Shown here piece after piece: positions 1 to 60,300 of a stretch of 64,000 nt of DNA (within the stretch, counting starts at the first letter, position 1; each line of letters begins with the position of its first letter). Position numbers and translations under genes: made by a program. This DNA comes from Stegostoma tigrinum. Its lineage: Eukaryota. The notes below the pieces were generated by a model, which searched no databases, was not told where the DNA came from, and saw nothing but the letters and a program-made list of their open reading frames with translations. The stretch spans positions 40,277,989-40,341,988 of the forward strand of contig NC_081373.1 of the NCBI RefSeq assembly GCF_030684315.1. The letters are read 5' to 3'.

Positions 1-1070
1 GGTGGTGGTTTAACCAGAGGGGACATGCCCCAGGTGAGGGGAGAGATTGAGAAGAAGAGTCATTAATGGTAAACTCAGCTGGTATAGGAATTGAATGCTA
101 GCTATTGGCATTACTCTGCATCTCAAACCACGTATCCAGCCAGCTGAACTGACCCATCCATCTCCTACACTCTTGATGACCTTGCAGCCTGCCCTTGTTT
201 GTGTTCAGCCTCTTTATCTTACTGATAATGCTCTCCCTTTACCCCTGAACCCATGATTTGCAGATTGTCATGCTGTTGTTGGCCCTACACTCTTCTCATA
301 TTGAGACCAGGGTAACTGTGGAATGTGTGAGCCCCTCCCCCACCCTCCTACAGGTTTCTGACCTTCCCGTGGTTGATGAGATTCCACTCTTCTAACTGGA
401 ATTGCACATCACCATCATCATTCCCACAGTGACCCCATCTAATGAACTCCAATCCCTAAACTGATCTTCTCACTTACCCCAGGAATGATTGTACTGCCTC
501 CTGATGATGCTCCTGTCTATCAATACCTAAAATCCCCGGGACTGACCGGGGCCCTGCCCCGACTGACTCGGAAAGACAGCCCTGAAAATCGCGAGTCAGC
601 ACCAAGAAAGCAATCTAAGAAGCATAAGCTGCATCTTATGAAAGTGCTTGAGACCTTGTAAGTGTCCATGCACTCAAAGCAACCTGGCATTGCATTCAAT
701 TCATAAGTATCCATAAATTCCAAAGTGGGTTCTAAAGACTGAAATGGTGTGTGATTTGCTTGAAAAACAGCTATGATAATGTGGAAAGGCTGGTGGTTTA
801 GCAGTGACCATTTGTAGAATGGAAGAATAAAAGAGGATGGCTTCTATAGAGCATGCAGAAGAATGATGATGATGGAGCTGGATGAATGTCCAGAAAAGCA
901 AATGGCAAGATATAGGTGCATGTAATCACACTGGCATTCATATTGGGAATTGATGACATGCAGTTTTTCATGGAATGAGGGGGGAAATGGGAAGTCATAT
1001 AGAAATGAGGTGAGGTTAGGTCCTGTCATGTAAGATTTGTAATTTTTTTTATTGTAATATCATTTATTTT

Positions 1071-1425
1071 AGATAACAAAAATGTGGAGCTGGATGAACA
1101 CAGCAGGCCAAGCAGCATCTCAGGAGCACAAAAGCTGACGTTTCAGGCCTAGACCCTTCATCAGGTGACTGTCTGAGTGGAGTTTGCACATTGTCCCTGT
1201 GTCTGTGTGGGTTTCCTCCCACAGTCCAAAGATGTTGCAGGCTAGGTGGATCGGCCGTGCTAAATTGCCCACAGTTGCCCATCAATTGCCCACACCCCTC
1301 TCTGATGAAGGGTCTAGGCCTGAAACGTCAGCTTTTGTGCTCCTGAGATGCTGCTTGGCCTGCTGTGTGCATCCAGTTTCACACTTTGTTATCTTGGATT
1401 CTCCAGCATCTGCAGTTCCCATTAC
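1071..1425. mobile_element. Fold-back mini-PLE (family A) enclosing a captured SINE segment
   Basis: Inverted PLE 3' termini (1071-1164 minus, ~1296-1425 plus), each with an HHR motif. TSD CATTTATTTTAGA at 1061-1073 and 1426-1438. Confidence 0.88.
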
Positions 1426-1451
1426 CATTTATTTTAGAGTTTGGATTTAAC

Positions 1452-2006
1452 TTAGATTAGATTAGATTCCCCACAGTGTGGAAACAGGCCCTTTGGCCTA
1501 ACAAGTCCACACCTTCCCTTGGACCATCCCACCCAGACCCATCCCCCTATAACCCACACACCCATGAACACTGTGGGCAATTTACCATGGCTGATCCACA
1601 TCTTTGGACTGTGGGAGGAAACCGACACAGACACAGGGACAATGTGCAAACTCCATACAGACAGTTACTTACATAGAACATAGAACATAGAACAGTACAG
1701 CACAGAGCAGGCCCTTCAGCCCACGATGTTGTGCCGACCATTGATCCTCATGTAGGCACCCTCAAATTTCTGTGACCATATACATGTCCAGCAGTCTCTT
1801 AAATGTCCCCAATGACCTTGCTTCCACAACTGCTGCTGGCAACGCATTCCATGCTCTCACAACTCTCTGTGTAAAGAACCCACCTCTGACATCCCCTCTA
1901 TACTTTCCTCCAACCAGCTTGAAACTATGGCCCCTTGAGACTGGAATCAAACCCAGGTCCCAGGCGCTGTGAGGCTGCAGTGCTAACCACTGAGCTACCA
2001 TGCCGC
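1452..2006 (-). mobile_element. HE1-like tRNA-derived SINE interrupted by a CR1 3' fragment
   Basis: (TAGAT)n tail at 1453-1467. Body resembles the copies at 41323-41515 and 52111-52346. tRNA-like head (GGTAGCTCAGTGGTTAGCACTG...GGGTTTGATTCC on minus) at ~1937-2005. Confidence 0.75.
1671..1936 (-). mobile_element. CR1-type LINE 3' end
   Basis: (TAGAACA)n tail. Minus-strand peptide RGHSFKL...FFTQRVVRAWNALP...FKRLLD is the typical CR1 ORF2 C-terminus. Confidence 0.85.
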
Positions 2007-3895: not shown

Positions 3896-4476
3896 GTTAA
3901 CAAGATGCAAATACATAGAAATATTGCAGTAATCCCTCAATAGTGTATTCTAAAATTTGCCATTTAAACCTTCAGGGGAACATCAGGAACTTTTTTCTCA
4001 ATATTGGAAAGCTGATTTTATTTTTTCCTGCCATACTTTCCCAACTTTATCACAGTTGCCCAAAACATTTGATGGTTGGGACAATTCCACCCAAAGACCC
4101 ATTTCTTAATCTTCAACTTCACTGTGTTACAATCACATCTTGATGTTTTGTGGACAAGATTAACTGCCACACTTTGAAATTTGACCTGGCATAGAAAGGT
4201 AACTAATAACATAGAATATACTTACATTAATATCCGTACATAATGTTACAAAATTCTTCGATTACATGATTGCTGAAACAATTTTCCTCCAAGTTAACAC
4301 CTTTTCAGTTGGTATAATGTTAAGTTTGATGTGCATCCTGATTTAGCACTACTTCACTTGACGTTAAAATCACAAAGGCAAAATGACTACCTTCTGTTTG
4401 CCTACTTTTTCTGTGGGTAAAAGAGAACCATATACAAAGAAAAATGAGGAAGTAAAACAAAGTGTTAATATTTTTT

Positions 4477-4620
4477 AATAATAAAATGTGAGGCTGGATG
4501 AACACAGCAGGCCAAGCAGCATCTCAGGAGCACAAAAGCTGACGTTTCGGGCCTAGACCCTTGAAGGGTCACATTTTATTATCTTGGAATTCTCCAGCAT
4601 CTGCAGTTCCCATTATCTCT
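4477..4620. mobile_element. Fold-back mini-PLE (family A), internally deleted
   Basis: Minus arm 4477-4562 ends in the HHR stem II, then GAAGGGTC, then the plus-strand 3' tail. TSD TGTTAATATTTTTT at 4463-4476 and 4620-4633. Confidence 0.88.
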
Positions 4621-5141
4621 GTTAATATTTTTTGGTCCTTTTAAGCAGTCATTTCTCTAGCATGATTATATGTGATTAAATAAAGTTAAATGTGAAAGCA
4701 TTCCTGTTGCTCATTTTTATTAAACCTTCATAACATTGATTTTTTGAAAAGTTGTGAATCAATTAAAGCTCGAATTGGGGGAAATAGTTTTGCATGAACG
4801 TGCACTTACAACTGGTAATAACAACTAACTTTCTCTTTACTGATAGTAACCTAGGAATTACTAGATGAAAAATAACAATGTCCTTTCTACAATCCTGGGC
4901 TCATGCGGTTCAACAATAAGAAGCTGAATAATCATAGTAATCAATCTCTATCAATTAGTCTACACAGATCCAGGCATGAGGCAAGAAAAATCTCAGTGGT
5001 GCAAAGCTGTTTGAACTATACGTCTAACTTGTTGCTTTCCTCCCAAGCATGCTACTCTTACCACATGTCACGTTTCAAATTACTCATACAATTTCTCTAA
5101 TAGTTCAAACAAAGATGCTTTTGACAAACTCTGTTCATCTG

Positions 5142-5360
5142 GAGATAGTGGGAACTGCCGATGCTGAAGAATTTGAGGTATCACGGTGTAGAGCTGGATG
5201 AACACAGCAGGCCAAGCAGCATCAGAGGAGCAGGAAAGCTAATGTTTTGGGTCAAGACCCTTCTTCAGAAAAAAGGGTCTCGACCTGAAACGTCAACTTT
5301 CCTGCTCCTCTGATGCTGCTTGGCCTGCTGTGTTCATCCACCTCTACACCATGTTATCTC
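5142..5360. mobile_element. Fold-back mini-PLE (family B, CTGAAGA-type HHR)
   Basis: Inverted arms meet at ...GACCCTTCTTCAGAA/AAAAGGGTCTCGACCTGAAACGTC. TSD CTCTGTTCATCTGGA at 5129-5143 and 5358-5372. Confidence 0.88.
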
Positions 5361-7084
5361 TGTTCATCTGGATCTAGGTTATATGCTTGTTGATAAAATT
5401 GGTTGCTCATATGAAAACTATTAAAAACATTAATGAGTTATTGCAATGTTCAACAGCTTCTCAGTTGTAAAACTTCACTGGATTATTCTTTTATAGACTT
5501 TTCATTTTGTTGTATTAGAATGCATTAAACATATGCTTATGAGGGAAATTTGGATATGAAAAGGTTCATGCAAGCAAATTTGGGCTGTGTTGTTTTTGAG
5601 TATAACCAGGCTTCTTAAACTACTGAAAAAGTATCTGTGATACGAATGCAACTTCAGACAGTAAATGTGTTGGCCCCATATTTATATTCCACTTTAGCTT
5701 CCTGAAAACACCTAATAACTGCAGACAACTTGCAGAGCAGACAACTTCTAACATCACTAACATCACTACAAAGTTAGTGTGCAATGCTATCTTGATGCCA
5801 ATGTTACTATTTTAGAGGTCCAGACTCCAGCCTGTGCCCTCTGTTAACCTCATAGAGCTGACAGAATATTAAACAACATGGACGAGCACCCCCTCCCTCC
5901 CATTGTTATTAACAGTAAATGCATGTATTGTGCTTTTGGCATAGATCATTAAAATGGAAAAGAACATCCTTAACCTTTTGAGTACAGCATATCTCATGAA
6001 ACATGCACCTTCGTTATCTGCTAAAAATGTTTACTTTTATTATCTTTTCCAGCTATTGTGTACTTATGGAACAGCATACTGATGGGTCTTTCTTACATCA
6101 GTCTGTATTGTTTGAATATTCTACAATAAGTTTTCCAACTGATGCTGAAATACTGTTTTGTTTATTTAAAATCCAATGCTGAATCAAGTTACTTGCAGCT
6201 AAGTTGGCCTGGAAGGACTTTCTACTGGAATTATGAATCGCTTTTGGAATTAGGCATGATTGAGAGTATGAGCAGAGGTCATGTAGAGCAGGAGAAGCTG
6301 CTAGAGGAGGGAGAGGGAGGAAGGGGGCATCAGGGTTCCCAGCAGGAAGCCAAATATAATCAGGGAACAATGTCACTACCTACATATGTTTGTGCCAACT
6401 ATACATCACTAATGTGGTCAACACAGAAACCTGCTCCCTGCTGGAGCTCCAACCCCAATTTCAGAGGACAACAAGAACCTTTGGAAATGAGGATAAATGT
6501 GGCTTTGGCTTTTAATGAACCTTGTTTGTTTCAAGCGAATGCAACATTTCACAGTTTGCAACACACTACTGCATAAGAGAGGTTACTGAGATTCTTGGTA
6601 CACAGAAAGACAACTTCCCATAATTCACTCTTGCCAATGACAAGCAGTTGGGTGAGGGTTTGCAAGAATTTGTTAAAATTTAATTTTAATTTTTTATAAA
6701 TTTGAGTTGCCATAAAAATGACCTTGCATATACTAACTGTGAGTTTGGCCATGTACCTTGAGAGAAAGGTAGTCCACTCTCTTATTGTGCAGCTATTGTA
6801 TGACTATAGGCAGTGGGTCAAAACCTAATATACTGGCAGCAGTCCTTCATGCTGTAGTATTCTATGTGAGCAAATAATCCATACGTCACACCAGCATTCT
6901 CACACCAATTCCTTATTCATAGTCATACACAACTTTCCTTCCCTCTGTCTCTGAATATCACATCTTTCTCTTCTCCTACAATGCCAAAATAAGTCAACAC
7001 AAATACACATTCCAATCCAAATGTATAAATTAAATCATGTTATGCCACATATAAAATAAAAAAAACTCCGTTAATGAATTTCTC

Positions 7085-14133: not shown

Positions 14134-14134
14134 A

Positions 14135-15075: not shown

Positions 15076-15084
15076 TTGAACATA

Positions 15085-16310: not shown

Positions 16311-16867
16311 TCTCCCCGCTGGCCGAGGTATCCTTTAATGCCTGATATAGACTCATTATGTTGAAGTTACAGTCCAACCATCTGACAACCCAATGCAAAA
16401 GTCACTTTCGTTCAGTTCCCATCATTGCCACCAACACAAAACAGCTAAACTTCCCTTTAACTGCTGCCCATTATTTGGTGTCTAATCATGCCTTATCATC
16501 ATTGTAAGTGAAAAAGCTCTTGCCCTCATAGTATACACAAATAGCCAGTTTCCACAGAGATTGGAGACCATAACAGGCTCCCAAAGCCTGCTCTGTTTGC
16601 AACTGTGCAGAAGCAGAAATTACCACTGCGATACAAAGCAAGATGTGAATGCTGTCTCGGGGTAACTGACTGAGGCAGAAGGTGAAATGATGAGATCAAA
16701 GAGCTTTGAGCTGAAATTCCATGTCCCATTTTACATTCACCCCTCTCATGGTCTGACTACATTGATCTGATATGGATTTCTATTTGCTAACCCATGTAAA
16801 ACCCACCACAGAAACTCAGGTTCATATTGAGACAAATAACTTGAAGTTTATTAACACCAATTACATA

Positions 16868-16917
16868 CATGAATATGACATTTCAGACATATATATGTCT
16901 GAAATGTCATATTCATG
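16868..16917. repeat. Perfect 50-bp palindrome
   Basis: CATGAATATGACATTTCAGACATAT|ATATGTCTGAAATGTCATATTCATG, with no spacer. Confidence 0.95.
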
Positions 16918-43848: not shown

Positions 43849-46800
43849 ATTCACTGGAGTGTGGTAAGATGCCTTATATGGACAGATTTATTTTTCTAGC
43901 TGCTGTTCAGTTCTTTAAGAAAGAGATCCAATTGGATTAGATGTTTTTCCCTGGGAGTGTCTTAGGCAGAAGTTGTTTCCTTTAGCTGAAACATCTATGG
44001 TGATACAAAAAAATAGACGTCTCAATGATTACCAGGTTTCAAAATATTCCAGATGGCAGGCATAGGTGCTAATATGAAGAAAGGTCAAAAGACCAAGCAG
44101 AATGGGAATGAAACTTTCATCAGTTAATCTGGCTATCACAGTAGAAGACAAAACTGGTGCAAAAGAACACAAGTATCATTTTGAAATGCCCAAACCTTCC
44201 TGATGGGTGTTCTTGCGCAATTAGCATAACATTTCTGATGGCTAAAAATGGCGAAATGTTGTACCTCAGCTGAACAAGCAAAAGAATACAAAGGGTTGCT
44301 AAAAGTATACTGGCCACCAGATACAAAGGACCTGGGATTCTATCAGTCAAATATTTTAAATCAGGTTATACATGGGCATACTGAAAATAATATATACATT
44401 TAATATTATGCAGATAATCATTCATTTTCATATAATATCCATTATCTGACAAGTGAATGGGTGAAGTTTATAGATTGGTAATTGCTGGCTTGAAACAATT
44501 GATGGAGATGAAGTCTGTAAAACAGCATTGATGGGGGCCAACTGTCAACTGATGGATCATTTTACACAAAGAAATGCAAGTACAAAGAAATTGTCAGAAT
44601 TCCTAAAGGAGTGAATCTCATAATGTGGTGCTAGGTATAGAATATGGAAGGTCTTTGTTGAATTTGTTTGTGACTTTTGTTTATACTTATAAATTCGATT
44701 TGTTTTATTTAAAAAGAAACCATGTCTTCATGATGTTTCATTGTATGGAAATAGTGGTCATTTACAAAAAATATACTTTTTTTCTCTAATAAATAGGGAC
44801 AGGTTGAACCTGCAAGATTTAGGGGCATTCTTGTTATCTGTAACTCCAATGAAAAAAATTAGGAAAGTGGAAAGCTTGACTCTAGTACTATCCTTTACCA
44901 CTTGGCTTTCTTGAATAGAACCGATGGGCTTCCCATTCTGGAAATACTTGCCTTGTAAGGGGAGGACAGAACTTGTGGTAGCACATTCACATAACTCTGA
45001 GGTAACGTGTGAAAACGAAAAGATGTCTCATGGGTAATGGTACCAGACATTCTGTAGCTGAAGACCAATCAGCCGTTTGGTTCCAGACTGTCTGAACAAA
45101 TTAGATTGACAGCTTTTTACCCTACATTTTCTGATATTGTCACCATCCTCACCTTACCATACGTGAACAAGAGACAACGAGATTTAAAAGTAGTTTGGTT
45201 CATCTGATTTATTCTAGGATGGTAGGAGTAGAATGATTTTAATGAATGGAATATGTCTTATCAGTTTATCAGTAAAAATGTATGCATGTCAAAAGTGTAC
45301 CTGTGTACTATGAGAATACACTAGGTATGAGTTTTTTTGTCATATGTGGATGAACTGATAGAACATGCTACATCATTCACATGGTAGCATGTTGTAATCT
45401 AAGCCTTCAATGTATTTTTTGCCAGCAGCGGGCATCTCGACAGATGCTGACAGCCAATGGATTTCATCTAGTTGATTGGAGAGTGCTCATACTAAGGCAG
45501 CAATATAATGTGATCGCTATAAACTTATCAAAAGACGATGCTGCTCATTGCAGGATAATCATACTTCATAATGACTTTATGCAGGAGGATAGAGAAGCAA
45601 GAGAGAGATGAAAAGTTATTGCACCATTCAAACAACAAGGGAAAATATGCAAGATGATCTGGTTAGAATTGGTATGACTCCGAGAAAAGAGTTGTGAGAC
45701 TCTAAAGACACACTAAAAATGGTTATTTCAACGTGCTCTTTTTGCTGCATCCCCTGGTTATTATGCCTGGGATGCTGGAACTTGATTATGCAACCCTTCT
45801 TCCTGTAGATTGTGAGCTCATTCCACAAAGGCTTTTCATGCACTACCAGTCTGTTTACACAGGATTGCAACAAAAGAAACATTTAGCACAGTTATTTATG
45901 AAGGATCGCTCTCCCTGGACTTAATGAAGTGAAACATTTGAAATTAGAATTTGGCCAGCAAACCAGATGTAAAAAAACATAATCCACTATATTGTGTCCG
46001 CTACTGGGTTGGTTACACAACCTAAAGACAGAAGTGAAGTTTAATATCATCACCATCTCAATTTGTGTTTACTTTATAACTTATCATTGGCTCAAGTCTT
46101 GATGGAAATAAACTTGCAAGGTTACAGGGATAGACTGGAGGAGTTGGACAGATCAGATTGCTCTGCAAAGAACTGGTATGAACTATGTGGGCTGATTGGC
46201 TTCCTTCTAAACTGGAATGATTACATAGCTCTATAATAGATACATAAAATCCGTAACACTTCATTAAGCAATGACCTGTCTACATCAGTACAATTAACTG
46301 CAAAATCTTTCTGCAAATTAAGGATTGAACTCTGCAGCCAGGAAGTCAGATGACCCTCTATGAACTCAGTAAATTACAATTCAACAGGCCAAATCTCCTG
46401 GTGCTTTGTCACATATACTTCATAATATTTCCCAATTAAGAAAGAAGAACAACAAAATATATTTAAAGAAAGCATCTGAGAGCTATTTGCTGTATTATAA
46501 CACAAGATCTTGCTATGTGTCTCTGAGCTTTAATTATGATATGTCGTTTTGTGTTTATCTTACAATATGATGATACTACATTGAACATATTAGTGTAGTT
46601 CTAGAAGGTAGTCTGAAATGTTATGATTTAAAGTGTTGCTAAATAATCTTGCCTCTCAGTTCTGCTGTGCTATCTCACTGTTGTACTTGACTCAATCTCA
46701 GTTTTGTGATTTTGAGAATCTGTTCACTACAATGTTCCTTTTCTCTTTTCTGTCCCCTATCATGACCCCACCCACCCCCTTTCCACTGCTGCAATCTTAC

Positions 46801-47179
46801 TAAATGTAGAGTTTAAAATATATTGTTAGAAAATTGCTGAAACACTCAAGGATGTGAATCAAGAGCTCAGTACAAAATGAGGTCATGCAGTAAGGGACCT
46901 GAACAAAGCACAAGTGTGACAGAGTTAATAGCAGTGGATGAGAAACCTGAAAGAGACATTACAGAGAAGTCACATCTGACCAGAGAGACTGATTGAAATG
47001 TTGGCATTTCACCTTTTGCAAAAGTGGACATGCTCAATTTTGTTCCAGCAAAATCCGAAATCTCTAAAGGAAAATATATGGTTTTTATTCTAAGTGTCTC
47101 ATTGCTTATCCATGCAGCATGTCACTTCTGACAATAGATATTGTACTGATTGGAACATGCATGAATCAAAGAACTTGGT

Positions 47180-48110
47180 TTGTCGATGCAGCAAGTAATT
47201 AAGAAGGCAAATTTAATATTGGCCTTCATTGCTAGAGGGATGGAGTTTAAAAACAGGGAGGTTGTGTTGCAGCTGTTTAGGGTGCTGGTAAGGCCACACC
47301 TTGGGTACTGACACAGTTTTTGTCTCCTTACCTAAGAAAAGCAGTAATGGCATTGGAGGGGGTGCAGAGGAGGTTCACTAGGTTAATCCTGGAATTGAGA
47401 AGGTTGGTGAATGAAGAGTAATTGTGCAGACTGGGGCTGTACTCATTGGAATTTCGGTGACTGAGGAGGGATCTTGTAGAAGCATATAACGTTATGAAGG
47501 GAATAGATAAGTTAGAAGCAGAAAGGTTTCTAAGGTTTTGGAGTAGATTTGTTGTTTAGGTTGTGGGTGTTGAGGTTGGTTGTCTCAATGAGCTGGCTTG
47601 TTGTTCTGCACCGGTGAGGGTGTTGTTTATAAGTTTGTATACATCCTCTAGTTTGGTCCGTTTAATGATAACAAAGGTATTGTCCATCATTAAACAAACC
47701 AAACTAGAGGAGACGCACAAACTTTTAAAGAACACCCTCACTGGAAACCAGCTTGGCGAGCCAACCAACCTCAAGCAGAGAGGTTGTTTCCAGTGGTGGG
47801 AGAAACTAGAACTCAGGGACATAGCCTCAAAATAAAGGGGAACAGGTTTAGGCCCAAGTTGAGGAAGGGATGCTTCACCCAAAGTGTTGTGAATCTGTGG
47901 AATTCCCTGTCCAATGAAGCAGTTGAATCTATCTCATTGAATGTTTTTAAGGCAAAGAGACAGAGGTTTTTGAACTGTAAGGAAATAAGGGTTATGGTGA
48001 GTGGGTGGGTAAGTGGAGCTGAGTCCTCATAAAGATCAGCCATGATCTTATTGAATGATGGAGCATGCTCAATGGGCCAGTGACCTAATCCTGTTCCTAT
48101 TTCTTATGTT
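47180..48110 (+). mobile_element. CR1-type LINE 3' region interrupted at 47529-47772
   Basis: LFRVLVRPHLGY..QF, RLGLYSLEFR.LRRDLVE and TQGHSLKIKG...FTQSVVNLWNSL motifs. Confidence 0.85.
47529..47772. mobile_element. Fold-back fragment of a Poseidon-type PLE
   Basis: Hairpin of an RT segment (DNTFVIIKRTKLEDVYKLINNTLTG on minus; IIKQTKLEETHKLLKNTLTG on plus). TSD AAGCAGA(A/G)AGGTT at 47516-47528 and 47773-47785. Confidence 0.7.
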
Positions 48111-48119
48111 TTAACTTTC

Positions 48120-51100
48120 CATGGGGCAACTGATACTCTAAACTTTCAAGAGTTGATGGATTTAGCTAAGGAATATTATGGCCCCAAGCCTCCCGTAATT
48201 CTGAGAATCTACTGGTTTTACTTGGTAGTTCAAAACCTGGGGAAGCCCAATCAGGATTTTTGACGTGGTTTAGACAACTGGCAGGGGCATGTGATTTCAG
48301 TTGAACCCTAAGTGATATGCTAAGAGACTGTTTGGTGTGGGGAAGATTAATGATGCAACCACGCGAAAGCACCTATTGCTGAAGGCCAACTGAACTTCAA
48401 ACAGGCACTACAACTGTTTTTATCATTGGAAAATACAGCAAGCGGAGCATATAAGTTGCAGGGTATTTCAACAGACACCTTCACCAGGCCAACTGAGTCT
48501 GGGGAACACCACCTGAGTTTGGACAATTGCATAGCCTCACTTAAGTCATGTCTGAACAGAGGGACTCTAGGTCAGCCCACGGTAAAACCCCGAAACAAAG
48601 CCGAGCCTGGGCCAAATGGTTAAAATTTTCTTCAGGATCTGGGCTGGCAAACCTTTGTAGTCGCTGCTGGTGTGCAGACTCAAGAAGGCAAAGGAGCCCC
48701 TCTGGACCTAAATTGAGTAAAATAACTCATAGACTGGTATCCGGGAGAGTGCACACCCTGGAAAATCCATGTATGTATGGTCCGGAACAGTTAAACTGCT
48801 TAGCAATATCCAAATCCGAACCAATTAAAATTAATGTCTGATTAAATGTCACCTGGTCCTGATGGAGGTTGACAGTGGCACGTCTGTATCAGGGTTTGCA
48901 GAAACAATCTTTACCAAAATTTGCTCTGGACTCTTTAGCCTTTAGGTTTTGCAAGACCTTGGCCAGGCTGAGAGCCTACGCCAGGAATTCCGACAGATTA
49001 ACAGTACAACTTTGATTCCTGTCTCTTATGAGAAGCATCTGGTTCAGTTACAAATGACTGTAGTAAAAAGCCCAGGCGCAAGCTTGATGGGGTGAAATTG
49101 ATTGTGAAAGATCCAACTTGACTGACTCAACAGTTTTCAATTGGAAAATGACTACCTGAGTGAGGTCCTAATAAAATGCCCAGACATTTTTCACAAAGGT
49201 CTAGGGGCTATCGAAGGAGCCAAGTCTACCTTACATGTTGACTAAGAAACAACTCCATGATTTGGCAAGGCCCACCCAATGCCATTGGCCTGTCTGGCAA
49301 AAGTAGAGGCAGAAATAAGGAGGATGGAAAGCAAAGAAATCATCAAACTAGTACAGTCTGAGGAATGGGCAGCACTGGTCTTACTGATTGTGAAGCCTGA
49401 CAGGTTGGCTCACCGTTTATGGCAATTTCAAACAAACAGCAAAATGCTTGCTGCAATTGGATAAATGCTATGCAAAACTGGTATGCAAAACTGGTGGGAG
49501 GCTGACCTTCACAAAGCTGAACAAGAGCCATGCATACCTGCAATTGTAATTAGATGAAGATTCAGTAAATATGATACAGTTAATACCCATAAGGGTTTGT
49601 ACCAGTGTCGAAGTCTGCCATTTGGGCTATCATCAACTTATGCTACTTCCCAGCAGGCCATTGGGAACAATTTACAAGGGCTACCCCCAAGTCTCTGTTT
49701 ATTTGGATGACATGCTAATAAACGGGATGACTAATAAAGAGCATTTTATAAATGTCATAAACGTTACTCCAAGACAGGTAAATGCATTAGGACGGAAAAA
49801 ATGAGTGTTCCAGGCACCCCAAGTGACCCACTTGGGCTACAGAGTTGACAAGACCAGCTACACTTGTTGGAAGATAAAGTGAGGGCGATCAAAGATGCCT
49901 CGGTTCCCATATCGATACAGGAGCTTAGCTCTTTCCTTTGGGCTGGTGAATTATTATGGAAAGTTCATATGTTACCTGACCTCCATCGTGGCACCCTTAC
50001 ACCTGCTATTTAGAAAAGGCCAGCCTTGGAAATGGTCTTACAGCCAAGAAGTAGCCTTTAGAGAAGTAAAGAAGCAACTATTCTGTAAATCCCTGATAAC
50101 AGCACCCAATCCCCCGATGGCTGGTGCCTTCTTCTAAGGAGTTGGCCCATTACAATACCGAGCGAGGTGTGGTGCTACATGCAATGCCTCCCCATATGGC
50201 ATCGGGATAGTGTTGGTTCATCAGTGGCCCAGTGGAGAGGAATACCTGGTAGCATGTGCTTCCAGGACTGTGGCTGACGCTGATTGAAGATACGCCCAGA
50301 GAGAGAAGGAAGGTTTGGCAGTTATCTTTGATGTGAGAAAGTTCTACCAACACCTTTTATGGATGTAAATTTGTAATAGTAATGGACCACAGACCCTTGT
50401 TTGGGCTACTTAGAGGACAAGCCCATGCCACCCATTATTTCAGGGCAAGTTCAGGTGGGCTCATATCCTGAGTGCATACACTTACAAGGTGGAAACTATC
50501 CGGGAGGCCAAGTGTCAAATACACATGCATTGAACCGCCTCCCATTGGCAGTTACACTACTGCTCATGCCACCACTAGAAGAGTCCGTGATAATAAAATG
50601 TGAGGCTGGATGAACACAGCAGGCCAAGCAGCATCTCAGGAGCACAAAAGCTGACGTTTCGGGCCTGGACCCTTCAACGTCAGCTTTTGTGGCTCTCTGA
50701 TGAAGGGTCCAGGCCCGAAACATCAGCTTTTGTGCTCCTGAGATGCTGCTTGGCCTGCTGTGTTCATCCAGCCTCACATTTTATTATCTTGGAATTCTCC
50801 AGCATCTGCAGTTCCCATTATCTCTGATACTAGAAGAGTCCGTTCTGGTTTTCGATGTTCTGGACATCCTTCCAGTCACTGCTGGATAATTGGACTGTGG
50901 GCACAAAAAGAATCTATCCTGGTAAAACCAAAACAGCTGGTAGTGATGAGGGAAACAGAAGGGCCAAGACAACCAGAATTGAAACTTTTCTGGACCTGGT
51001 GAGGCCAGAGGATGGAATATTTTTATGGGAAACAAGAGTGATTGCCCCTAGCAAAAGTTCACTGCCAGATACTGGCTGCATTCCACTAGGGTCATCCAGG

Positions 51101-51545
51101 CATTTCCAAAATGAAGGTATTGGTGTGGAGTTATGCCTGGTGGTCAGGATTGGATGCAGATCTAGCTACATGGTGGGTCAGTGCCCAGAGTGCCAACAAA
51201 GACAAAACATACTGCCAACAGCTCCCCTATGTTCAGGGGAATGGCGGGGTAAACCCTGGACTTGGTTACACGTTGACCATGTTGGTCTTTTCGTAGCCCC
51301 TATGTTCTTAATCATTGCGGATGCCCTTTCAAAGTGGTTGAACATTACGTAAAATTCATTTGTCGAACACAGGGACAACGATAGAAAAAATGTGAGCATC
51401 TTTTGCAATATATGTACTCCCAGAAGTGCTGGTCACAGACAGTGAGCTATCATTTACCAGCAGCATATTTGAGTATTTTCTAAAGTCGAATGGCATCCAT
51501 CATGTAATGACAGCTCCATGCCATCCGTTGTCCAATGGTCAGATT
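48120..51545 (+). mobile_element. Degenerate Ty3/Gypsy gag-pol (PR-RT-RH-IN order)
   Basis: gag-like QKPGE...LSDMLRDCLV; protease MEVDSGTSVS (~48862); RT VYLDDMLI (~49697) and GLVNYYGKFI..L..IVAPLH.L; RNase H-like CNASPYGIG; integrase SYAWWSGLD..., CPECQ, PWTWLHVDH. Many stops and frameshifts. No LTRs recognised. Confidence 0.88.
50589..50828. mobile_element. Fold-back mini-PLE (family A) inserted in the Gypsy pol
   Basis: Inverted arms with HHR. 15-bp TSD ACTAGAAGAGTCCGT at 50574-50588 and 50829-50843. Confidence 0.93.
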
Positions 51546-52110
51546 GCCTTGGAAATACTTAAGGTTAGGCAGCTCAGCAGGTTGGAAAATTAACCTAGAA
51601 GCACCTGTGGGGAAGTCATTGGGCTGCTTGGGAATCACTGCCCTGACATATCTCTGGCCAGTCTTGCAACCACACGAAGCAAATACAATTGATAAGGGCG
51701 ATATAACTGATAAAGCTAAATTTGGTCAGGAATAGGTCACGATTATTTGAAAGCATTCAGCATGAGTAAGCAACAGACTTGATTGGTTTCATCTCGAGGG
51801 GAGGTAAGGCTGTGAGGGGAGGGAATAAATTTCTACAAGCACCCACAATCATGTTTCAGCTCTGTTGTACATATTTGAGGCTGCATTGTATGTTGGAAGG
51901 GTCTACAAAATCCTTGTTCTAAACATTCTGTCTGTATGGCTGTTAAGGTACCACTAGTCAGAAAAAGAACAGATTAAGAATTTTCTTGGCAACAGTGTAG
52001 CTGATAATGGACTGGCAGAGGGCAAGATTGCCTATTAGAGAAAACTTGGATTAGGTCCTTATTAATATGAAATCAGCCACCCTGTGATTTTTATGGAAGT
52101 ATGTGAAACT

Positions 52111-52346
52111 GGGGTGACATGGTGGCTCAAATGCTGTATCACTGCACCAGGGACCCGTGTTCAATTCCACCCTCAGTGACCGCCTGTCTTGAGTTTGCAC
52201 ATTCTCCCTGTGTCTGTATGGGTTTCCTGTCAGACTCCAAAGATGTGCAGGTTAGGTGGATTGGCCACGCTGACTTGCCCATAGTATCCAGGGATATACA
52301 GGCTAGGTCGATTTAGCCATAGGAAATGCAACGGATAGCGTACGAG
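52111..52346 (+). mobile_element. HE1-like SINE 5' part (3' part resumes at 57391-57478 after the PLE)
   Basis: Head GGTGGCTCA...GTGTTCAATTCC and body GAGTTTGCACATTCTCCCTGTGTCTG...CCAAAGATGTGCAGGTTAGGTGGATTGGCC. Continues GGTGTGTTTGAGTAGGATGC...TTCCACACTGTA after the second TSD. Confidence 0.8.
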
Positions 52347-52442
52347 TGATAATGGGAACTGCAGATGCTGGAGAATCCAAGATAATAAAATGTGAGGCTG
52401 AATGAACACAGCAGGCCCAGCAGCATCTCAGGAGCACAAAAG

Positions 52443-52474
52443 CTGACGTTTCGGGCCTAGACCCTTCATCAGAG
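52443..52474 (-). ncRNA. Hammerhead ribozyme motif in the inverted arm of the full-length PLE
   Basis: Reverse complement reads ctCTGATGAaGGGtctaggCCCGAAAcGTCag, identical to 57295-57326. Confidence 0.78.
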
Positions 52475-53725
52475 AGGGGGATGGGGTGAGGGTTCTGGAA
52501 TAAATAGGGAGAGAGGGGGAGGCGGACCGAAGATGGAGAGAAAAGAGGATAGGTGGAGAGGAGAGTATAGGTGGGGAGGTAGGGAGGGGATAGGTCAGTC
52601 CAGGGAAGACGGACAGGTCAAGGGGTGGGATGAGGTTAGTAGGTAGGAGGTGGAGGTGCGGCTTGGGGTGGGAGGAAGGGATGGGTGGGAGGAAGAACAG
52701 GTTAGGGAGGCAGAGACAGGTTGGACTGGTTTTGGGATGCAGTGGGTGGAGGGGAAGAGCTGGGCTGGTTGTGTGGTGCAGTGGGGGGAGGGAACGAACT
52801 GGGCTGGTTTTGGGATGCGGTGGGGGAGGGGGAGATTTTGAAGCTGGTGAAGTCCACATTGATACCATTGGGCTGCAGGTTTCCCAAACGGAATATGAGT
52901 TGCTGTTCCTGCAACCTTCGGGTGGCATCATTGTGGCACTGCAGGAGGCCCATGATGGACATGTCATCTAAAGAATGGGAGGGGGTGTGGAAATGGTTTG
53001 CGACTGGGAGGTGCAGTTGTTTATTGCGAACCAAGCGGAGGTATTCTACAAAGCGGTCCCCAAGCCTCCGCTTGGTTTCCCCAATGTAGAGGAAGCCACA
53101 CCGGGTACAGTGGATGCAGTATACCACATTGGCAGATGTGCAGGTGAACCCCTGCTTAATGTGGAAAGTCATCTTGGGGCCTGGGATAGGGGTGAGGGAG
53201 GAGGTGTGGGGGCAAGTGTAGCATTTCCTGCAGTTGCAGGGGAAGGTGCCGGGTGTGGTGGGGTTGGAGGGCAGTGTGGAGCGAACAAGGGAGTCACGGA
53301 GAGAGTGGTCTCTCCGCAAAGCAGACAGGGGTGGGGATGGAAAATGTCTTGGGTGGTGGGGTCGGATTGTAGACGGTGGAAGTGTCGGAGGATGCCCAGT
53401 TCGTCCGCTCCCCCCACTGCACCACACAACCAGCCCAGCTCTTCCCCTCCACCCACTGCATCCCAAAACCAGTTCAACCTGTCACTGCCTCCCTAACCTG
53501 TTCTTCCTCTCACCCATCCCTTCCTCCCACCCCAAGCCGCGCCTCCATCTCCTACTTACTAACCTCATCCCACCTCCTTGACCTGTCCCTCTTCCCTGGA
53601 CTGACCTATCCCCTCCCTACCTCCCCACCTATACTCTCCTCTCCACCTATCTTCTTTTCTCTCCATCTTCGGTCCGCCTCCCCCTCACTCCCTATTTATT
53701 CCAGAACCCTCACCCCATCCCCCTC

Positions 53726-53757
53726 TCTGATGAAGGGTCTAGGCCGAAAATGTCAAC
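53726..53757 (+). ncRNA. Mutated hammerhead motif in the 5' pseudo-LTR
   Basis: ctCTGATGAagggtctaggccGAAAatGTCaa: same motif with changes in stem II and helix III. Confidence 0.6.
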
Positions 53758-54198
53758 TTTTGTGCTCCTGAGATGCTGCTGGGCCTGCTGTGTTCATCTA
53801 GCCTCACATTTTATTATCTTGGATTCTCCAGCATCTGCAGTTCCCATTATCACTGATACAATTTTAACCTCACTGCGAAGCCTCTTCCAGGGATGCCTAA
53901 CCTGAAGAAGTTACCCTCCTCCCTCCGGACCAACCTCAAGGAATCTCTCTCCCATTGCAACTCCCTTGTAATCTCTTCGGCCTTGAAACTGCTCGACCAT
54001 GTCCTGAAGTAAACCAGGTACCACTGCCACATCACCTTCCTCAGCACCTGCCTACGGAACCAGATCAACCCCAATGGACTACAGTCTACATTTCAGCCTT
54101 CCCAATTTGACCCCAACCATGACCACCTCTACACCCAGAATATTCAGACCCTTCAGAAGCGTTTCTCCCTCTGAATCCTGAAACAGACACTCGCAGCC

Positions 54199-57066
54199 AT
54201 GCGCCGGCACCTCCACACACTGCAATCCAGCCTGCCCCAGCTCAGAGCCTCCCTCTCCCAGACCTACAAAGGACCTCTGCTGTTTTTTATCCTCCGCAGG
54301 ATCCACAGACTGAACACTCAGTTTCACTCAGCTTTACTGGACACCAAAAATCGTAAGTACAACAAACTCACGGGCCCCTGCCACCCACAAGAGGATTCCT
54401 GTGCATCCCAAATCCCGAGTCTGTCCCTGCCCCTCCCCCACCATGCACCTGCCGCCATTGACTATGAGGACACAGCCGGGGACCCCATCGATGACGTCAC
54501 ATCCGCCTCCGCCAACCACACCACTTCCGGGACCGCTGCTGCAGTCACCACCTCCACGTCCAGGTACTACAGCCCACACACCACCCTCACCTCAGCTGCT
54601 GCCGCCCACCCCGATCCTCCCACCGCCGACGGAACCCCGCCCACGGTCGACGCCGACGGAACCCCACCCACGGCCGACGACCTCATCGCTCCGCCCACAA
54701 CCTCCACAGTCAGCAACCCCACAGAAGACAGCCACACTGAACCCTGCCACATCTTCACCATCCCCCCAGACCTCCCACTGACTGAGGACGAACGGTCAGT
54801 CCTTAGTAAGGGGCTCACCTTTGTCCCCCTACAACCACACATTAACGAATACCAGTCACGGTCGGACATAGAACAGTTTTTCCGCCGCCTTCGCCTCCAT
54901 GCCTACTTCTTCAACCGGGAACCTAACCCTCCCTCCACTGACCCCTTCACCCGCTTCCAACACAAGTCCTCCTCCTGGACACCACCCCCAGGCCTCCTAC
55001 CTTCCCTCGACCTCTTCATCTCTAACTGCCATCGAGACATTAACTGCCTCAACCTCTCCACCCGACTCACCCACTCCAACCTCTCCCCCGCAGAATGGGC
55101 AGCCCTCCGCTCCCTCTGCTCCAAACCCAACCTCACCATCAAACCCGCAGACAAGGGTGGCGCAGTGGTAGTATGGCGCACTGACCTCTACATCGCCGAG
55201 GCCAGATGCCAACTCTCCGACACCACCTCCTACCGCCCCCTCGATCATGACCCCACACCCGAGCACCAAACCATCATCTCCAACACCATTCATGATCTCA
55301 TCACCTCAGGGGACCTCCCACCCACAGCCTCCAACCTCATTGTTCCCCAACCCCACACGGCCCATTTCTATCTCCTTCCCAAAATCCACAAACCTGCCTG
55401 CCCTGGTCGACCCATCGTCTCAGCCTGCTCCTGCCCCACCGAACTCATCTCCACCTATCTGGACTCCATTTTCTCCCCTTTGGTCCAGGAACTCCCCACC
55501 TACATCCGTGACACCACCCACGCCCTCCACCTCCTCCAGGACTTCCAATTCCCTGGCCCCCAACACCTCATTTTCACCATGGACGCCCAGTCCCTATACA
55601 CCTGCATTCCGCATGCAGATGGCCTCAAGGCCCTCCGCTTCTTCCTGTCCCGCAGGCCCGACCAGTCCCCCTCCACCGACACTCTCATCCGCCTAGCCGA
55701 CCTCGTCCTCACCTTCAGCAACTTCTCTTTCGATTCCTCCCACTTCCTACAGACTAAGGGGGTGGCCATGGGCACCTGCATGGGCCACAGCTATGCCTAC
55801 CTCTTTGTAGGTTACGTGGAACAGTCCCTCTTCTGCACCTACACAGGCCCCAAACCCCACCTCTTCCTCCATTACATTGATGACTGTACCGGCGCCGCCT
55901 CTTGCTCCCCAGAGGAACTCGAACAGTTCATCCACTTCACCAACACCTTTCACCCCAACCTTCAGTTCACCTGGGCCATCTCCAGCACATCCCTCACCTT
56001 CCTGGATCTCTCGATCTCCATCTCAGGCAACCAGCTTGTAACTGATGTCCATTTCAAGCCCACCGACTCCCACAGCTACCTAGAATACACCTCCTCCCAC
56101 CCACCCTCCTGCAAAAATTCCATTCCCTATTCCCAATTCCTCTGCCTCCGCCACATCTGCTCCCAGGATGAGGCATTCCACTCCCACACATCCCAGATGT
56201 CCAAGTTCTTCGGGGACCGCAACTTCCCCCCCGTAGTGGTCGAGAACGGCCTTGACCGCGTCTCCCGCATTTCCCGCAACACATCCCTCACACCCCGCCC
56301 CCGCCACAACCACCCCAAGAGGATCCCCCTAGTTCTCACACACCACCCCACCAACCTCCGGATACAACGCATCATCCTCCGACACTTCCGCCGTCTACAA
56401 TCCGACCCCACCACCCAAGACATTTTTCCATCCCCACCCCTGTCTGCTTTCCGGAGAGACCACTCTCGCTGTGACTCCCTTGTTCGCTCCACACTGCCCT
56501 CCAACCCCACCACACCTGGCACCTTCCCCTGCAACCGCAGGAAATGCGACACTTGCCCCCACACCTCCTCCCTCACCCCTATCCCAGGCCCCAAGATGAC
56601 TTTCCACATTAAGCAGAGGTTCACCTGCACATCTGCCAATGTGGTATACTGCATCCATTGTACCCGGAGTGGCTTCCTCTACATTGGGGAAACCAAGCGG
56701 AGGCTTGGGGACCGCTTTGCAGAACACCTCCGCTCGGTTCGCAATAAACAACTGCACCTCCCAGTCGCAAACCATTTCCACTCCCCCTCCCATTCTTTAG
56801 ATGACATGTCCATCATGGGCCTACTGCAGTGCCACAATGATGCCACCCGAAGGTTGCAGGAACAGCAACTCATATTCCGCTTGGGAACCCTGCAGCCCAA
56901 TGGTATCAATGTGGACTTCACCAGCTTCAAAATCTCCCCCTCCCCCACCGCATCCCAAAACCAGCCCCGTTCCTCCCCTCCCTCCACTGCACCACACAAC
57001 CAGCCCAGCTCTTCCCCTCCACCCACTGCATCCCAAAACCAGTCCAACCTGTCTCTGCCTCCCTAA
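54199..57066 (+). CDS. PLE reverse transcriptase / GIY-YIG endonuclease (955 aa open frame; the ancestral start is probably ATG 53893)
   Basis: PLE RT motifs IKPADKGGAVVVW, YLLPKIHK..PGRPIVS, TMDAQSLYT, KGVAMG..MG.SYA, HYIDD, FLDL. Cys linker CNRRKCDTC. GIY-YIG NVVYCIHC...LYIGETKRRLGDRFAEH. Confidence 0.95.
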   Translation: MRRHLHTLQSSLPQLRASLSQTYKGPLLFFILRRIHRLNTQFHSALLDTKNRKYNKLTGPCHPQEDSCASQIPSLSLPLPHHAPAAIDYEDTAGDPIDDVTSASANHTTSGTAAAVTTSTSRYYSPHTTLTSAAAAHPDPPTADGTPPTVDADGTPPTADDLIAPPTTSTVSNPTEDSHTEPCHIFTIPPDLPLTEDERSVLSKGLTFVPLQPHINEYQSRSDIEQFFRRLRLHAYFFNREPNPPSTDPFTRFQHKSSSWTPPPGLLPSLDLFISNCHRDINCLNLSTRLTHSNLSPAEWAALRSLCSKPNLTIKPADKGGAVVVWRTDLYIAEARCQLSDTTSYRPLDHDPTPEHQTIISNTIHDLITSGDLPPTASNLIVPQPHTAHFYLLPKIHKPACPGRPIVSACSCPTELISTYLDSIFSPLVQELPTYIRDTTHALHLLQDFQFPGPQHLIFTMDAQSLYTCIPHADGLKALRFFLSRRPDQSPSTDTLIRLADLVLTFSNFSFDSSHFLQTKGVAMGTCMGHSYAYLFVGYVEQSLFCTYTGPKPHLFLHYIDDCTGAASCSPEELEQFIHFTNTFHPNLQFTWAISSTSLTFLDLSISISGNQLVTDVHFKPTDSHSYLEYTSSHPPSCKNSIPYSQFLCLRHICSQDEAFHSHTSQMSKFFGDRNFPPVVVENGLDRVSRISRNTSLTPRPRHNHPKRIPLVLTHHPTNLRIQRIILRHFRRLQSDPTTQDIFPSPPLSAFRRDHSRCDSLVRSTLPSNPTTPGTFPCNRRKCDTCPHTSSLTPIPGPKMTFHIKQRFTCTSANVVYCIHCTRSGFLYIGETKRRLGDRFAEHLRSVRNKQLHLPVANHFHSPSHSLDDMSIMGLLQCHNDATRRLQEQQLIFRLGTLQPNGINVDFTSFKISPSPTASQNQPRSSPPSTAPHNQPSSSPPPTASQNQSNLSLPP

Positions 57067-57294
57067 CCTGTTCTTCCTCTCACCCATCCCTTCCTCCCAC
57101 CCCAAGCCGCGCCTCCATCTCCTACCTACTAACCTCATCCCACCTCCTTGACCTGTCCGTCTTCCCTGGACTGACCTATCCCCTCCCTACTTCCCCACCT
57201 ATACTCTCCTCTCCACCTATCTTCTTTTCTCTCCATCTTCGGTCCGCGTCCCCCTCTCTCCGTATTTATTCCAGAACCCTCACCCCATCCCCCT

Positions 57295-57326
57295 CTCTGA
57301 TGAAGGGTCTAGGCCCGAAACGTCAG
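57295..57326 (+). ncRNA. Minimal type I hammerhead ribozyme motif in the 3' pseudo-LTR
   Basis: ct-CTGATGA-a-GGGtctaggCCC-GAAA-c-GTC-ag: HHR core boxes CUGANGA and GAAA, stem II, GUC triplet, short palindromic ACGT at helix III. Minimal HHRs are established in PLE pLTRs. Confidence 0.8.
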
Positions 57327-60300
57327 CTTTTGTGCTCCTGAGATGCTGCTGGGCCTGCTGTGTTCATCCAGCCTCACATTTTATTATCTTGGATAGCGTA
57401 CGAGGGTGTGTTTGAGTAGGATGCTATTTGGATGGTTTGTGTGGACCTCATGGGGTGAATTGCCAGCTTCCACACTGTACTTTTTCAAGACTTTAGTCTT
57501 GTAATTTAGTATGTGTGTCACACTTTGAAGGTGCTCTTTCTGAATTGGTTGAATAGCTAGAATATTGAGTTCATTGTTCGTGAAGTAATCCTTCCCCAAC
57601 TTGTCCTTTGATTTTCACAATGGATCCATCACTTTCTTTCTATTTTCATATCAAAATGATCCAACTCTTTCATATGACATAGATATCTCAATTAGGATAT
57701 ACTAATAACATGATGTTATGAATTGGAGTTTTTTTAGTAATATTTATAACAGAGCTTCTGTACAATTTGCCCACAAACACACTGAGAATGAACAACCTAT
57801 TTCCCTACAGATTAGTGCTTCCACGCACAAAGAGGAAATGGAACTTTTAATATTTTACTTTGAATTCAATTTTTTGGTGTTGAAATGTAATTTTCTCCAA
57901 AGATTTTAGCCTATGTGTTTTTACACTTTGAAACAACAATGGTTGAACGTGTTTTTTATGATAATTGTTTCTACTGAATCTTTTATTGATACAACATTGA
58001 CAGCAACTCATGGGTCAGCCAAGCTATAAAAATGATACTATTCACCACGATAATGTTTGTTCATAGGCTGACAGTATGCTTTGTGTACCTTGTTATTCTT
58101 GCTGCCAACCTCAAAAGCAGGACCCGGTTTTTAGGCAGAAAGCAAAAAACAGTCCTGTTTACATTACTGACATTGGTTCCACTTTTAGATTTGGTCCAGG
58201 AGTTGTGCATGTCAGTCTCATCAAAGCGTAAGTGATCTACCAAGGGGAAGGTAGCCTCCTTTTAAGGTCTGATCAGAAGATTCTTGTTGAATAAACAATG
58301 TGAATTTTATTGCATTACTGCAATACTTACAGATTACATAAATAAAATCCACATTACTACAGAGACTACTAAAGAGGCGTACACTAGTCTCAGATCTGTT
58401 TTCTATATCCTCCTTGTTTAGTTTGATCTAGTCCTTGCAACATCATCACTGTGGGTGGAACTTAAGACAGTCAGTCAAGTATGGGGGAAGTTACCTAACT
58501 GTTGAACCACTCATTTTTTCGAGCGAGCTCTAGTTGTATTTGCAACAGTAGGTAGAATCATAGAATTGTTCAAGCACAGGGAAAGGTCATTCAAACTATT
58601 GTGTCCATGCTGTCTCTCCGAAAGGTCCATTCATGTAATGCCCCTCCTTTGCCCCCTTTCTCTACATTCCTCTTCTTCAGATATTTAGAATACTTAGAAA
58701 ATGTAGAAAAATTTCCAGCACAAAATGAGACCACTCTGCCCAGTTTGTCTCTGCTTTCGGCTGAGACTTCAGGGCCCAGTGCTCAGGCAGACAGCAGTAA
58801 ACAGTTCTGTTTATATCTCCGTGGAACATGTGATAAATAATGCTTAATGGAATTAAAACAGAATTACTTTGATACCACATTATAACTTTCTGGCAATTAG
58901 GTTACTAGTAGGTGAAGCAGACAAAGTTTTCCACTTTATATCCATCAAGTTTACAGCCAAAAGATTTAAAGGGGACGCTCATGTGGCTTGGCAATGAGCA
59001 AAGCTGTGATTTCAAAATTTCAGGAGTGCATTATAAATTGATCACGTTCGTCACGACCATGTTTATCTTTTCTCCATATTTTTGGTTGTGGAATGAAATT
59101 TACAAAAGGGACTAATTTACAATCAAGGATGGTGGAAGGAATTGCTGCAATTTTTAAGTACAAGTTATGGAAACTCATTGTAGGTGGTGTTTTCGTTGCT
59201 GCTTTGGTCAAGCAATGGGGGAAGTTGTCTGTAGTTGATCCAGCGCTGTGAAGTTTACATAGAGTGACTGAAGTGAGCAAGTTACTGATTTGTTGGTGTA
59301 ATTGTGATCAGTCATGGATACCAGAAAACATCAGCCTGATTACAACTCTCTGGTTCCTTGGTCACTGAATTGCTTGTGTGTTTGAGCCAAACAGTAAGAA
59401 GCCTTTGGATCTCTCCAAGTGGATGTAGCTTGTGTGCCTCACTGCAGTCAAACTGATGCCTGAAGAAAGTAAGTTATTCCACACCATTCCTGGGCCCCTA
59501 GTTGGTGTAAGTTTTTGCCTTTGACCAGCAGCTAAGAGACTCTGCAATTATCCTGTGTGAAGAAATAAAGGAACCTGGAGAAAAGAGATTGAAGAAAAGA
59601 AAGTCATGGCAAATCAATAGGATCATTTCAGCTGACCTTGTGGACAGGTGCTATAGAACTGTGCTCCCCAGTTTCTCCTTCTCTTCACACTTAAATCAAT
59701 GCCTTATTGTTTGTGTGTGCATCTAACGGGTTCAAAAAGTAGGTGAGATTTTTAAATTGTAGAGCTGCATGTTGATAATTCATAGCTCTTTACTTGTGAC
59801 TGGAATTTACACCTTTGTAATAAACAGTAGTTCTTATTAATCATGAGGGCCTGGTCAGTCTTTTCTGTTAGCTTAATTCCAACAGCTGAATCAGGGGCTT
59901 GTCAACTGATCAAATCATTAACTCTTGTTGTGACCACAGGAGTAGTAGGGCGTGAGAAACAGTGCACTGTTCCAACTGAGTCATCACACATTACCATCAG
60001 AGCCACAAGTGATATGAAGTGTGTGAGCTGCTGCACGACTGTACATGTCAGTACTGTAAAATGCAAAAAAGTTAGGAGCAGGCATTAATGGCAACCAGCC
60101 ATTTAAAGTGACCCACCAGGCATATACCTCATGGAGTTGGTGCTCCCTTTAAATAACAATTGCACTGGCTTCCTTTTGGTCAGTCTTGAAGAGAAAGGCA
60201 GATCTCAGGAATTTAAATTTAGCTAAAAGCACTACAGAGAGGCAGATATATTAATTCGCCCTTTACCATGTTCAGGCAGAATACCTAGATATCTAAAGCT

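Follow-up and report, generated by a model that had tools for sequence, protein, structure and literature searches.

Head-to-head insertions with a single tail among Penelope-like retroelements of Stegostoma tigrinum

Penelope-like elements (PLEs) that encode an endonuclease (EN+ PLEs) typically insert, according to the available text of three published accounts, as a partial tandem with an inverted, 5'-truncated copy, a tail of 30-40 nt and a target site duplication (TSD) (PMC3846280, PMC8557442, PMC2377424), and the formation of such tandem and inverted tailed copies is described there as undefined (PMC8557442). We analyzed insertions of this kind in a 64,000-nt stretch of Stegostoma tigrinum DNA (GCF_030684315.1, contig NC_081373.1, positions 40,277,989 to 40,341,988 of the forward strand), hereafter the window, and in samples of the genome. 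The window holds twelve insertions listed by the initial annotation, one of them a full-length PLE at 52333-57404, and their layout, which had been taken to be new, is the one published as typical (PMC3846280, PMC8557442, PMC2377424, as far as their available text goes). Like the canonical PLE unit described there, they have a head-to-head inverted arm, often a tail at one end, a variable TSD and palindromes at the inverted junction. They differ in that the tail is on exactly one arm of all TSD-supported pairs, the TSD measures 13-16 nt (8-10 nt in the rotifer), the target motif is symmetric, and a class of about 200 nt with a fixed stop dominates.

For PAc, the anole Poseidon protein, the available text of an in vitro study reports that both target strands are nicked and extended, that two starts bound the tail and that the protein is predicted to be a dimer; it does not link the two starts as partners in a single insertion or address inverted copies and a 5' stop, and it leaves later integration steps open (PMC11167929). 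The shark elements appear to share with PAc the hammerhead just upstream, two internal starts of reverse transcription (RT) and nicking and extension of both strands, although PAc comes from a clade different from that of the main shark family, which has a CX2-5CxxC linker. In L1 twin priming, cDNA synthesis on a single RNA starts from both strands of the target, which yields an inversion; the second primer there lies at a random internal site and the arms do not overlap, whereas here it lies at a fixed site 35 nt away and the arms overlap. Second arms primed internally in the L1 manner were seen at 37547, L062 and C41:91468. PLE-derived non-LTR (long terminal repeat) retrozymes are a further related class, averaging 363 bp in one chondrichthyan, and the text of the preprint, as available, is silent on the tail, the target site, a transcription start and inverted arms (bioRxiv 10.64898/2026.07.22.740005). 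Deleted more-than-unit copies of about 300-370 nt found here (30/40 loci) match this class; the hairpin minis lack a tandem unit and are not retrozymes. Within a literature coverage that left subscription papers mostly outside, we found no statement of strict one-tail pairing, a symmetric motif, same-template arms or a 5' stop.

Paired inverted ends and the single tail

Positions within the element are given as c coordinates, in which c=0 is window position 53823 in the 5' pseudo-LTR (pLTR), equivalent to 57393; the tail spans c+1 to c+35, the hammerhead core CUGAUGA runs from c-96, and the predicted ribozyme cut lies at c-69. An unbiased sample comprised 10 blocks of 100 kb (1 Mb) at arbitrary positions, and a targeted sample comprised the 39 loci that best matched the tailed end. 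Loci of at least 88% identity were classed as young.

In all twelve listed insertions in the window, self-comparison and reading showed that the left-hand PLE end is reverse-complemented and the right-hand one is in forward orientation. The eight TSDs claimed for them were confirmed at 1061 (13 nt, exact), 4463 (14), 5129 (15), 37541 (13, one mismatch), 42344 (13), 47516 (13, one mismatch), 50574 (15) and 52333 (14), whereas the identical finder recovered none in 290 mismatched end pairs; a second control on block loci gave 24/1929. At the other four sites (17146, 25222, 27709 and 31497) the TSD was absent or weak. The tail was on one arm at eleven of the twelve sites and on both arms at 17146.

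The same asymmetry, which the initial annotation had missed and which carries most of the mechanistic information, held throughout the samples. Outer ends in the blocks were bimodal, 42 tail-less and 48 tailed among 90 young ends, and exactly one arm was tailed in all 74 TSD-supported two-terminus insertions (35 from the blocks, 35 targeted and 4 from the window). For the blocks this amounts to 35/35 and p=6e-11 against a free 50:50 choice; the targeted loci, having been picked for one tailed end, are a weaker test of tail pairing. Five pairs lacked a TSD, of which two were one-tailed and three were called tail-less; two of these three show a diverged tail and one shows none. Because single-armed tail-less copies with TSDs are also present, the tail-less end is a genuine RT start.

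Two termini were found in 39 of the 75 young block loci (35 with a TSD), one terminus plus an inverted internal piece in 5 (4 with a TSD), and 31 were called single-armed (11 with a TSD). An inverted arm of any kind was thus present at 44/75, or about 47 once three visible mis-calls were corrected, since on reading 3 of the 31 'single' loci pair with an older or diverged partner. Roughly 55-60% of young loci are two-ended and more than a third are single-armed, so that the earlier statement that two-ended integration is the rule overreached: with 39/75 young loci carrying two termini, it is common yet not universal. A reference-free scan for inverted repeats flanked by direct repeats returned 61 candidates (control, 4/356), of which 54 had one end flush and the other offset by 22-55 nt, while about 9 of the 61 were spurious, being triggered by repeats inside elements. 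The scan revealed at least four families, which bears out the proposal that several PLE families share the pattern.

Target site, arm stop and template

TSD length ranged from 10 to 18 nt with a mean of 14.5 over 62 sites, 48 of which had 14-16 nt. Outside each TSD edge the flanks carry a motif, roughly AAACMRRN, on opposite strands, so that the target is two-fold symmetric: A occurs at -7 in 58/80 and 53/80 sequences on the two sides (111/160 half-sites) and at -8 in 51/80 and 49/80, with C/A at -5/-4 (pooled p<1e-17). The symmetry of this flank motif suggests two like nicks that would leave 3' overhangs of 14-15 nt. At least 2 nt were common to TSD and element at 26/51 tail-less and 26/39 tailed junctions against 18% expected, counts from which 11 tail-less and 23 tailed junctions with unaligned bases had been dropped; the tailed-end test used 25.

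Among 226 arm ends, 58 fell in c-104 to c-95, 7-8 in c-130 to c-105 and 6 at the predicted ribozyme cut. The stop rate per nucleotide was 0.036 at c-104 to c-95, against 0.003 both at the cut and immediately upstream of the stop and about 0.001 at more distant upstream positions; it was also raised to 0.013 at c-94 to c-81, a rise to be expected if ends were trimmed onto the stem II palindrome. Arms thus halt about 30 nt past a TATTTAT box, within 0-8 nt on the 5' side of the hammerhead core, and not at the cut, and single-armed copies halt at the same position. With the core as anchor, 61/171 young and 40/64 older copies end 0-9 nt before CUGA, and TATTTAT stands 34-35 nt before CUGA in 97/108 young and 20/24 older continuing copies. 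Exact genome-wide searches of the older family placed 3207 apparent ends on the A that precedes CUGA by four nt, 1912 on the base before it and 839 two bases upstream of that A, beside 7376 continuing copies, a ratio that is rough as the filters differ. Template jumps begin at c-100 to c-102 in L068, L088 and L077. The core boxes and stem II pairs of the hammerhead are conserved in 149-160 of 160 copies. Of the suggestion that the hairpins are hammerhead-centred, it holds that the arms meet beside the ribozyme; the ribozyme as the cause of the centre is not supported, given that arms halt 5' of the core and not at the cut. At two junctions (C28 block 13026, L042, and C3 block 80346, L019), the stop sequence (CTCTGATGA...) is repeated in short copies, a pattern resembling several rounds of realignment at the end of a template.

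The sequence at the stop is CCATTT in the older family and CCTCTCT in the young one, both of which we take to match an initiator-type promoter motif. From these features and the box spacing, the stop near c-100 would be the transcription start of the element. As a cap-G test, we counted the base before ATTT in the older family (G 991, A 1797, T 419, C 1912, with A and C inflated by arm joins and templated C); among the first 100 rows each with G, T and A, those read by eye to have three upstream bases G/T numbered 18, 30 and 8. Alternatively, the stop could be an RT block or a processing site, set by a bound protein, a C-rich template or splicing, and the priming model would be unchanged. The stop does border a C-run, c-120 carries a YnCAG motif resembling an acceptor, and in D. 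virilis an intron ends on the 5' side of the hammerhead, as the available text reports (PMC4209133). We regard this as unlikely, since long-arm ends are not enriched at other C-runs (6/82 against a 12% background), only 2/226 arms end at c-121 to c-116, a structural block would be encountered from its 3' side first, and the TATTTAT spacing together with the initiator-like CCATTT of the older family fits a start. Stalling at C-runs and ends at the splice acceptor were accordingly both set aside as candidates.

Arms of one insertion belong to the same length class, with 39 short-short, 31 long-long and 4 mixed pairs among 74, where 36.6 mixed would be expected. Arms had 46% of non-CpG variants in common within and 12% between insertions, a difference to which arm conversion could contribute and in which 21 of the 54 discordant variant columns are one position, c-24, selected for by the search query. 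Internal deletions gave a further view of the template. A junction pattern of tail to 5' region had 3999 matches genome-wide, and the first 40 such loci on contig C1 comprised 3 near full length and 30 internally deleted units, the latter with more than one unit each, about 28 different joins and, in 18 cases, a length of 296-374 nt. Both arms span a deletion join in 7 loci; the same join recurs across the arms in 6 of them (4 identical, 2 of equal length with point differences), and the arms differ in one (L175). A single template thus appears usual, not absolute. The deleted units, which make up most of these loci (L146-L185 on C1), retain the TATA-like box, the hammerhead, the two start sites and a further 150 nt or so past them, so that units of about 300-370 nt would delimit the sequence needed in cis. 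They, and not the minis, are non-coding tandem units with a type I hammerhead as in non-LTR retrozymes (30/40 loci, mostly 1-2 units). At three block loci (C20:46143, C1:81770 and C2:55185), arms are 98.7-99.6% identical to each other and 92-94% to the window copy at the terminus, which would indicate a younger subfamily or arm-to-arm conversion.

Probable twin priming and alternative routes

The head-to-head arms, TSD, single tail, symmetric motif, shared features of the template and sharp stop can all be read directly in these insertions, and we consider that they probably arise by a PLE form of twin priming, in which both strands of a 14-15 nt stagger prime RT at two fixed sites, usually on one RNA. 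A protein, likely dimeric, would nick the two strands of the target at positions 14-15 nt apart. The 3' ends released in this way would then each prime RT, the first at the tail-less site and the second at the tailed site, which lies about 35 nt downstream, and both would usually copy a single RNA. Copying would start only about 95 and 130 nt from the likely 5' end of the RNA, and because of this short distance both cDNAs would run off that end; joined via short complementarity, the run-off copies would form the hairpins of about 200 nt. Templates without this 5' end, that is, circular or read-through RNA, would give rise to the long arms and the more-than-unit copies. The available text of the PAc study reports that PAc needs sequence beyond the tail on its RNA (PMC11167929), and because the minis are without it they are predicted to be dead ends and not a mobile family. 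The proposal that each strand of a staggered cut primes its own RT is well supported by the one-tail rule, the symmetric motif and the tail-less single arms. At L062 (4074-4986), the second arm starts at c-596 and the first ends at c-601, in the L1 style.

Several observations weigh against this reading. About 28-31 of the 75 young loci are single-armed, and the exceptions to the one-tail rule, all without a clear TSD, comprise two tails at 17146 and none at C33:98334 and L159. The tailed arm extends further in 11 of 29 long pairs and the tail-less arm in 16, counts that also leave unsupported the notion that a trailing RT cannot overtake. Junctions show overlaps of 2-4 nt, though PAc initiation is reported, in the available text, to be homology-independent (PMC11167929). 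The cap-G rows scale to about 178:126:144, so that the excess of G is weak, and TATTTAT sits in a splice-acceptor-like stretch. Finally, the arms of L075 differ at 51 mismatches in 746 columns and those of L175 carry different joins, which suggests two RNAs at these loci.

We also considered a more specific and more tentative form of twin priming, which we would put at somewhat less than an even chance: obligate twin target-primed reverse transcription (TPRT), with a symmetric 14-15 nt cut by the dimer and RT starts 35 nt apart on one RNA near its 5' end, in which linear capped RNA would give hairpins only and the hammerhead would circularize the RNA for longer copies. When more-than-unit copies were read by eye, only 1 of the 14 that reach the stop position on a second pass ends there, some of the ends being joins. 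This is a weak hint of circular templates, which were proposed in the Discussion of a paper describing minimal hammerheads (PMC4209133, in the text available).

Fold-back of the cDNA offers a different route, in which the tailed cDNA snaps back, copies itself and ends about 35 nt short, with later asymmetric deletions at the centre blurring the symmetry; a related idea, self-priming on an antisense template, appears in the available text of an earlier paper (PMC3846280). Fold-back would yield one tail, shared variants and a matched length class automatically, many mini centres do lie on small palindromes, and symmetry to within about 10-30 nt is seen in 23 of 39 minis and in a few of the long pairs. 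Even so we find it quite unlikely and not an equal alternative, as had been suggested. The tail-less arm extends further in 16/29 long and 13/39 mini pairs; single tail-less arms have intact TSDs; second arms with a TSD consist of sequence missing from the first (C41:91468, C1:59371); the jump in L077 is confined to the tail-less arm; and PAc initiates at both sites in vitro (PMC11167929, available text). Deletions at palindrome centres, if asymmetric, could in part save the fold-back model. An asymmetric dimer carrying two separate RNAs, one per subunit and usually from the same locus, would account for L075 and L175, which obey the one-tail rule with apparently different templates. Length classes are mixed in just 4/74 pairs, and trans-mobilized non-coding deletion units still match joins in 6/7 loci despite about 28 joins among 30 loci, and we hold such a dimer to be rather improbable. 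Least credible by far is mobilization of the minis as units of a non-autonomous family, by a DNA transposase or the PLE protein: they resemble the miniature inverted-repeat transposable elements (MITEs) of DNA transposons in short size, terminal inverted repeats and high copy number, whereas 34 distinct centres occur among 37 minis (with small palindromes at the three repeats), TSDs vary from 10 to 18 nt, the ends are unequal and mostly offset by 28-45 nt, and there is a continuum with kb-long arms, which upholds the retro origin assigned to them and refutes, in this sample, the single homogeneous MITE family that the initial annotation had named as its refutation.

The window's elements and their significance

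The full-length copy (52333-57404, plus strand) lies inside a short interspersed nuclear element (SINE) and consists of TSD, inverted tailed arm, 5' pLTR, unit, tail-less 3' end and TSD. Its inverted, 5'-truncated arm (52347-53394, minus strand; 97% identical to 56373-57394) bears a tail of about 31 nt at the outer end, and the 430-nt 5' pLTR (53394-53823, plus) is 96% identical to 56964-57394. On the plus strand of this pLTR, the putative promoter box TATTTAT (53693-53699; 3' copy at 57263) stands 30 nt upstream of the strong cDNA-arm stop (53719-53728), and transcription would likely start near 53723 (3' copy near 57293). The tail (53824-53858, plus) lies between the two RT start sites, at about c-5 and c+30 to c+35, that the bimodal outer ends indicate. 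A minimal type I hammerhead motif occupies 57297-57326 (plus; CUGAUGA, a 5-bp stem II, GAAAC and GUC) with a predicted cut after 57324, and its 5' copy at 53727 reads as mutated. Rfam returned no hammerhead family match at E<=1, only weak microRNA (miRNA)-type hairpin matches, and predicted folding of the pLTR/5' region was not better than that of shuffled sequences (z=+1.4).

A 963-codon open stretch (54175-57066, plus), preceded by in-frame stops in the N-terminal region, encodes a reverse transcriptase with DKG and YIDD motifs, a CX4CxxC linker and a GIY-YIG endonuclease, the last matched at residues 815-854 with E 4.5e-4, slightly below the Pfam cut-off. Relatives of the protein have both domains, the closest listed being from carpet sharks. 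As in EN+ PLEs, one open reading frame (ORF) combines reverse transcriptase with a C-terminal GIY-YIG endonuclease, and the element has a partial-tandem pLTR containing the minimal type I hammerhead, an inverted copy, a 30-40 nt tail and a variable TSD. Its C-x4-C-x2-C linker conforms to the CX2-5CxxC motif before GIY-YIG that marks the Neptune and Nematis clades in the available text (PMC8557442), and the parent element is tentatively classed as Neptune-type. A tandem repeat of about 78 nt at the ORF end (53370-53480, 56940-57050) varies in copy number among copies. In an empty-site check, SINE paralogues of the insertion site gave 7 scattered offsets.

The other pairs range from minis to long, decayed insertions. 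Minis with a right tail are found at 1061-1438 (13-bp TSD) and 4463-4633 (14-bp TSD); between the arms of the former lies a 124-nt SINE piece (1165-1288) without a TSD of its own, possibly acquired when copying jumped, at the stop, to a SINE RNA template. The mini pair at 42344-42563 (13-bp TSD) has arms that meet through the stem II palindrome, and that at 50574-50843 (15-bp TSD) lies within a decayed LTR-retrotransposon pol remnant (about 48400-51600); two of five paralogues of this host could be aligned on both flanks, and both hold the 15 nt once between them. No readable empty allele was present among contigs aligned across 41800-51300. Older insertions comprise a mini pair of an older family at 5129-5372 (15-bp TSD, left tail), the exceptional pair at 17145-17374 with both arms tailed and the TSD absent, a long pair at 27709-30651 (right tail, internal inversion 28015-28749, TSD not found) and a pair at 37541-38492 (13-bp TSD), whose left arm, at 37547, begins about 60 nt inside the terminus, from about c-63, and shares 8 nt with the TSD. 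Decayed pairs of a third family were seen at 25222-25400 (partial right tail, decayed 11-nt TSD candidate) and 31497-32540 (long; left tail, TSD not found). The pair at 47516-47785 (13-bp TSD, 41-nt left tail) belongs to a different PLE family with an AC-rich end, which we take to be Poseidon-like, and contains no hammerhead; each of its arms (47529-47774) fuses an RT-coding piece straight to the terminus, with joins 11 nt apart, which implies that in a second PLE family, too, the template carried an internal deletion. Unlisted single ends lie at 15561-16106, about 43709-43830 and 38643-38677. A short palindrome at 16859-16926 is probably a simple repeat, and two unrelated direct repeats of 93-95% identity pair 22239-22367 with 24372-24501 and 23015-23120 with 37092-37197.

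The hairpins are real and of a known kind of insertion, and the quantitative rules found here make an open mechanistic question testable: for the PAc assay they predict that each start site serves one strand, that the target is symmetric and that copying stops at the 5' end of the RNA. The same rules carry a warning for annotation, since very abundant hairpins in sharks that look like MITEs or miRNAs are scars of PLEs; three of the window hairpins drew sub-threshold Rfam miRNA matches. If obligate twin TPRT is true, it would have left on the order of 100,000 young strong-stop hairpins in the genome and would account, in one cycle, for the inverted pLTR as well as for the tail and the ribozyme. 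Extrapolated from 39 young two-armed insertions per Mb, there would be roughly 125,000 hairpin-forming sites genome-wide, which may, hypothetically, be a source of double-stranded RNA.

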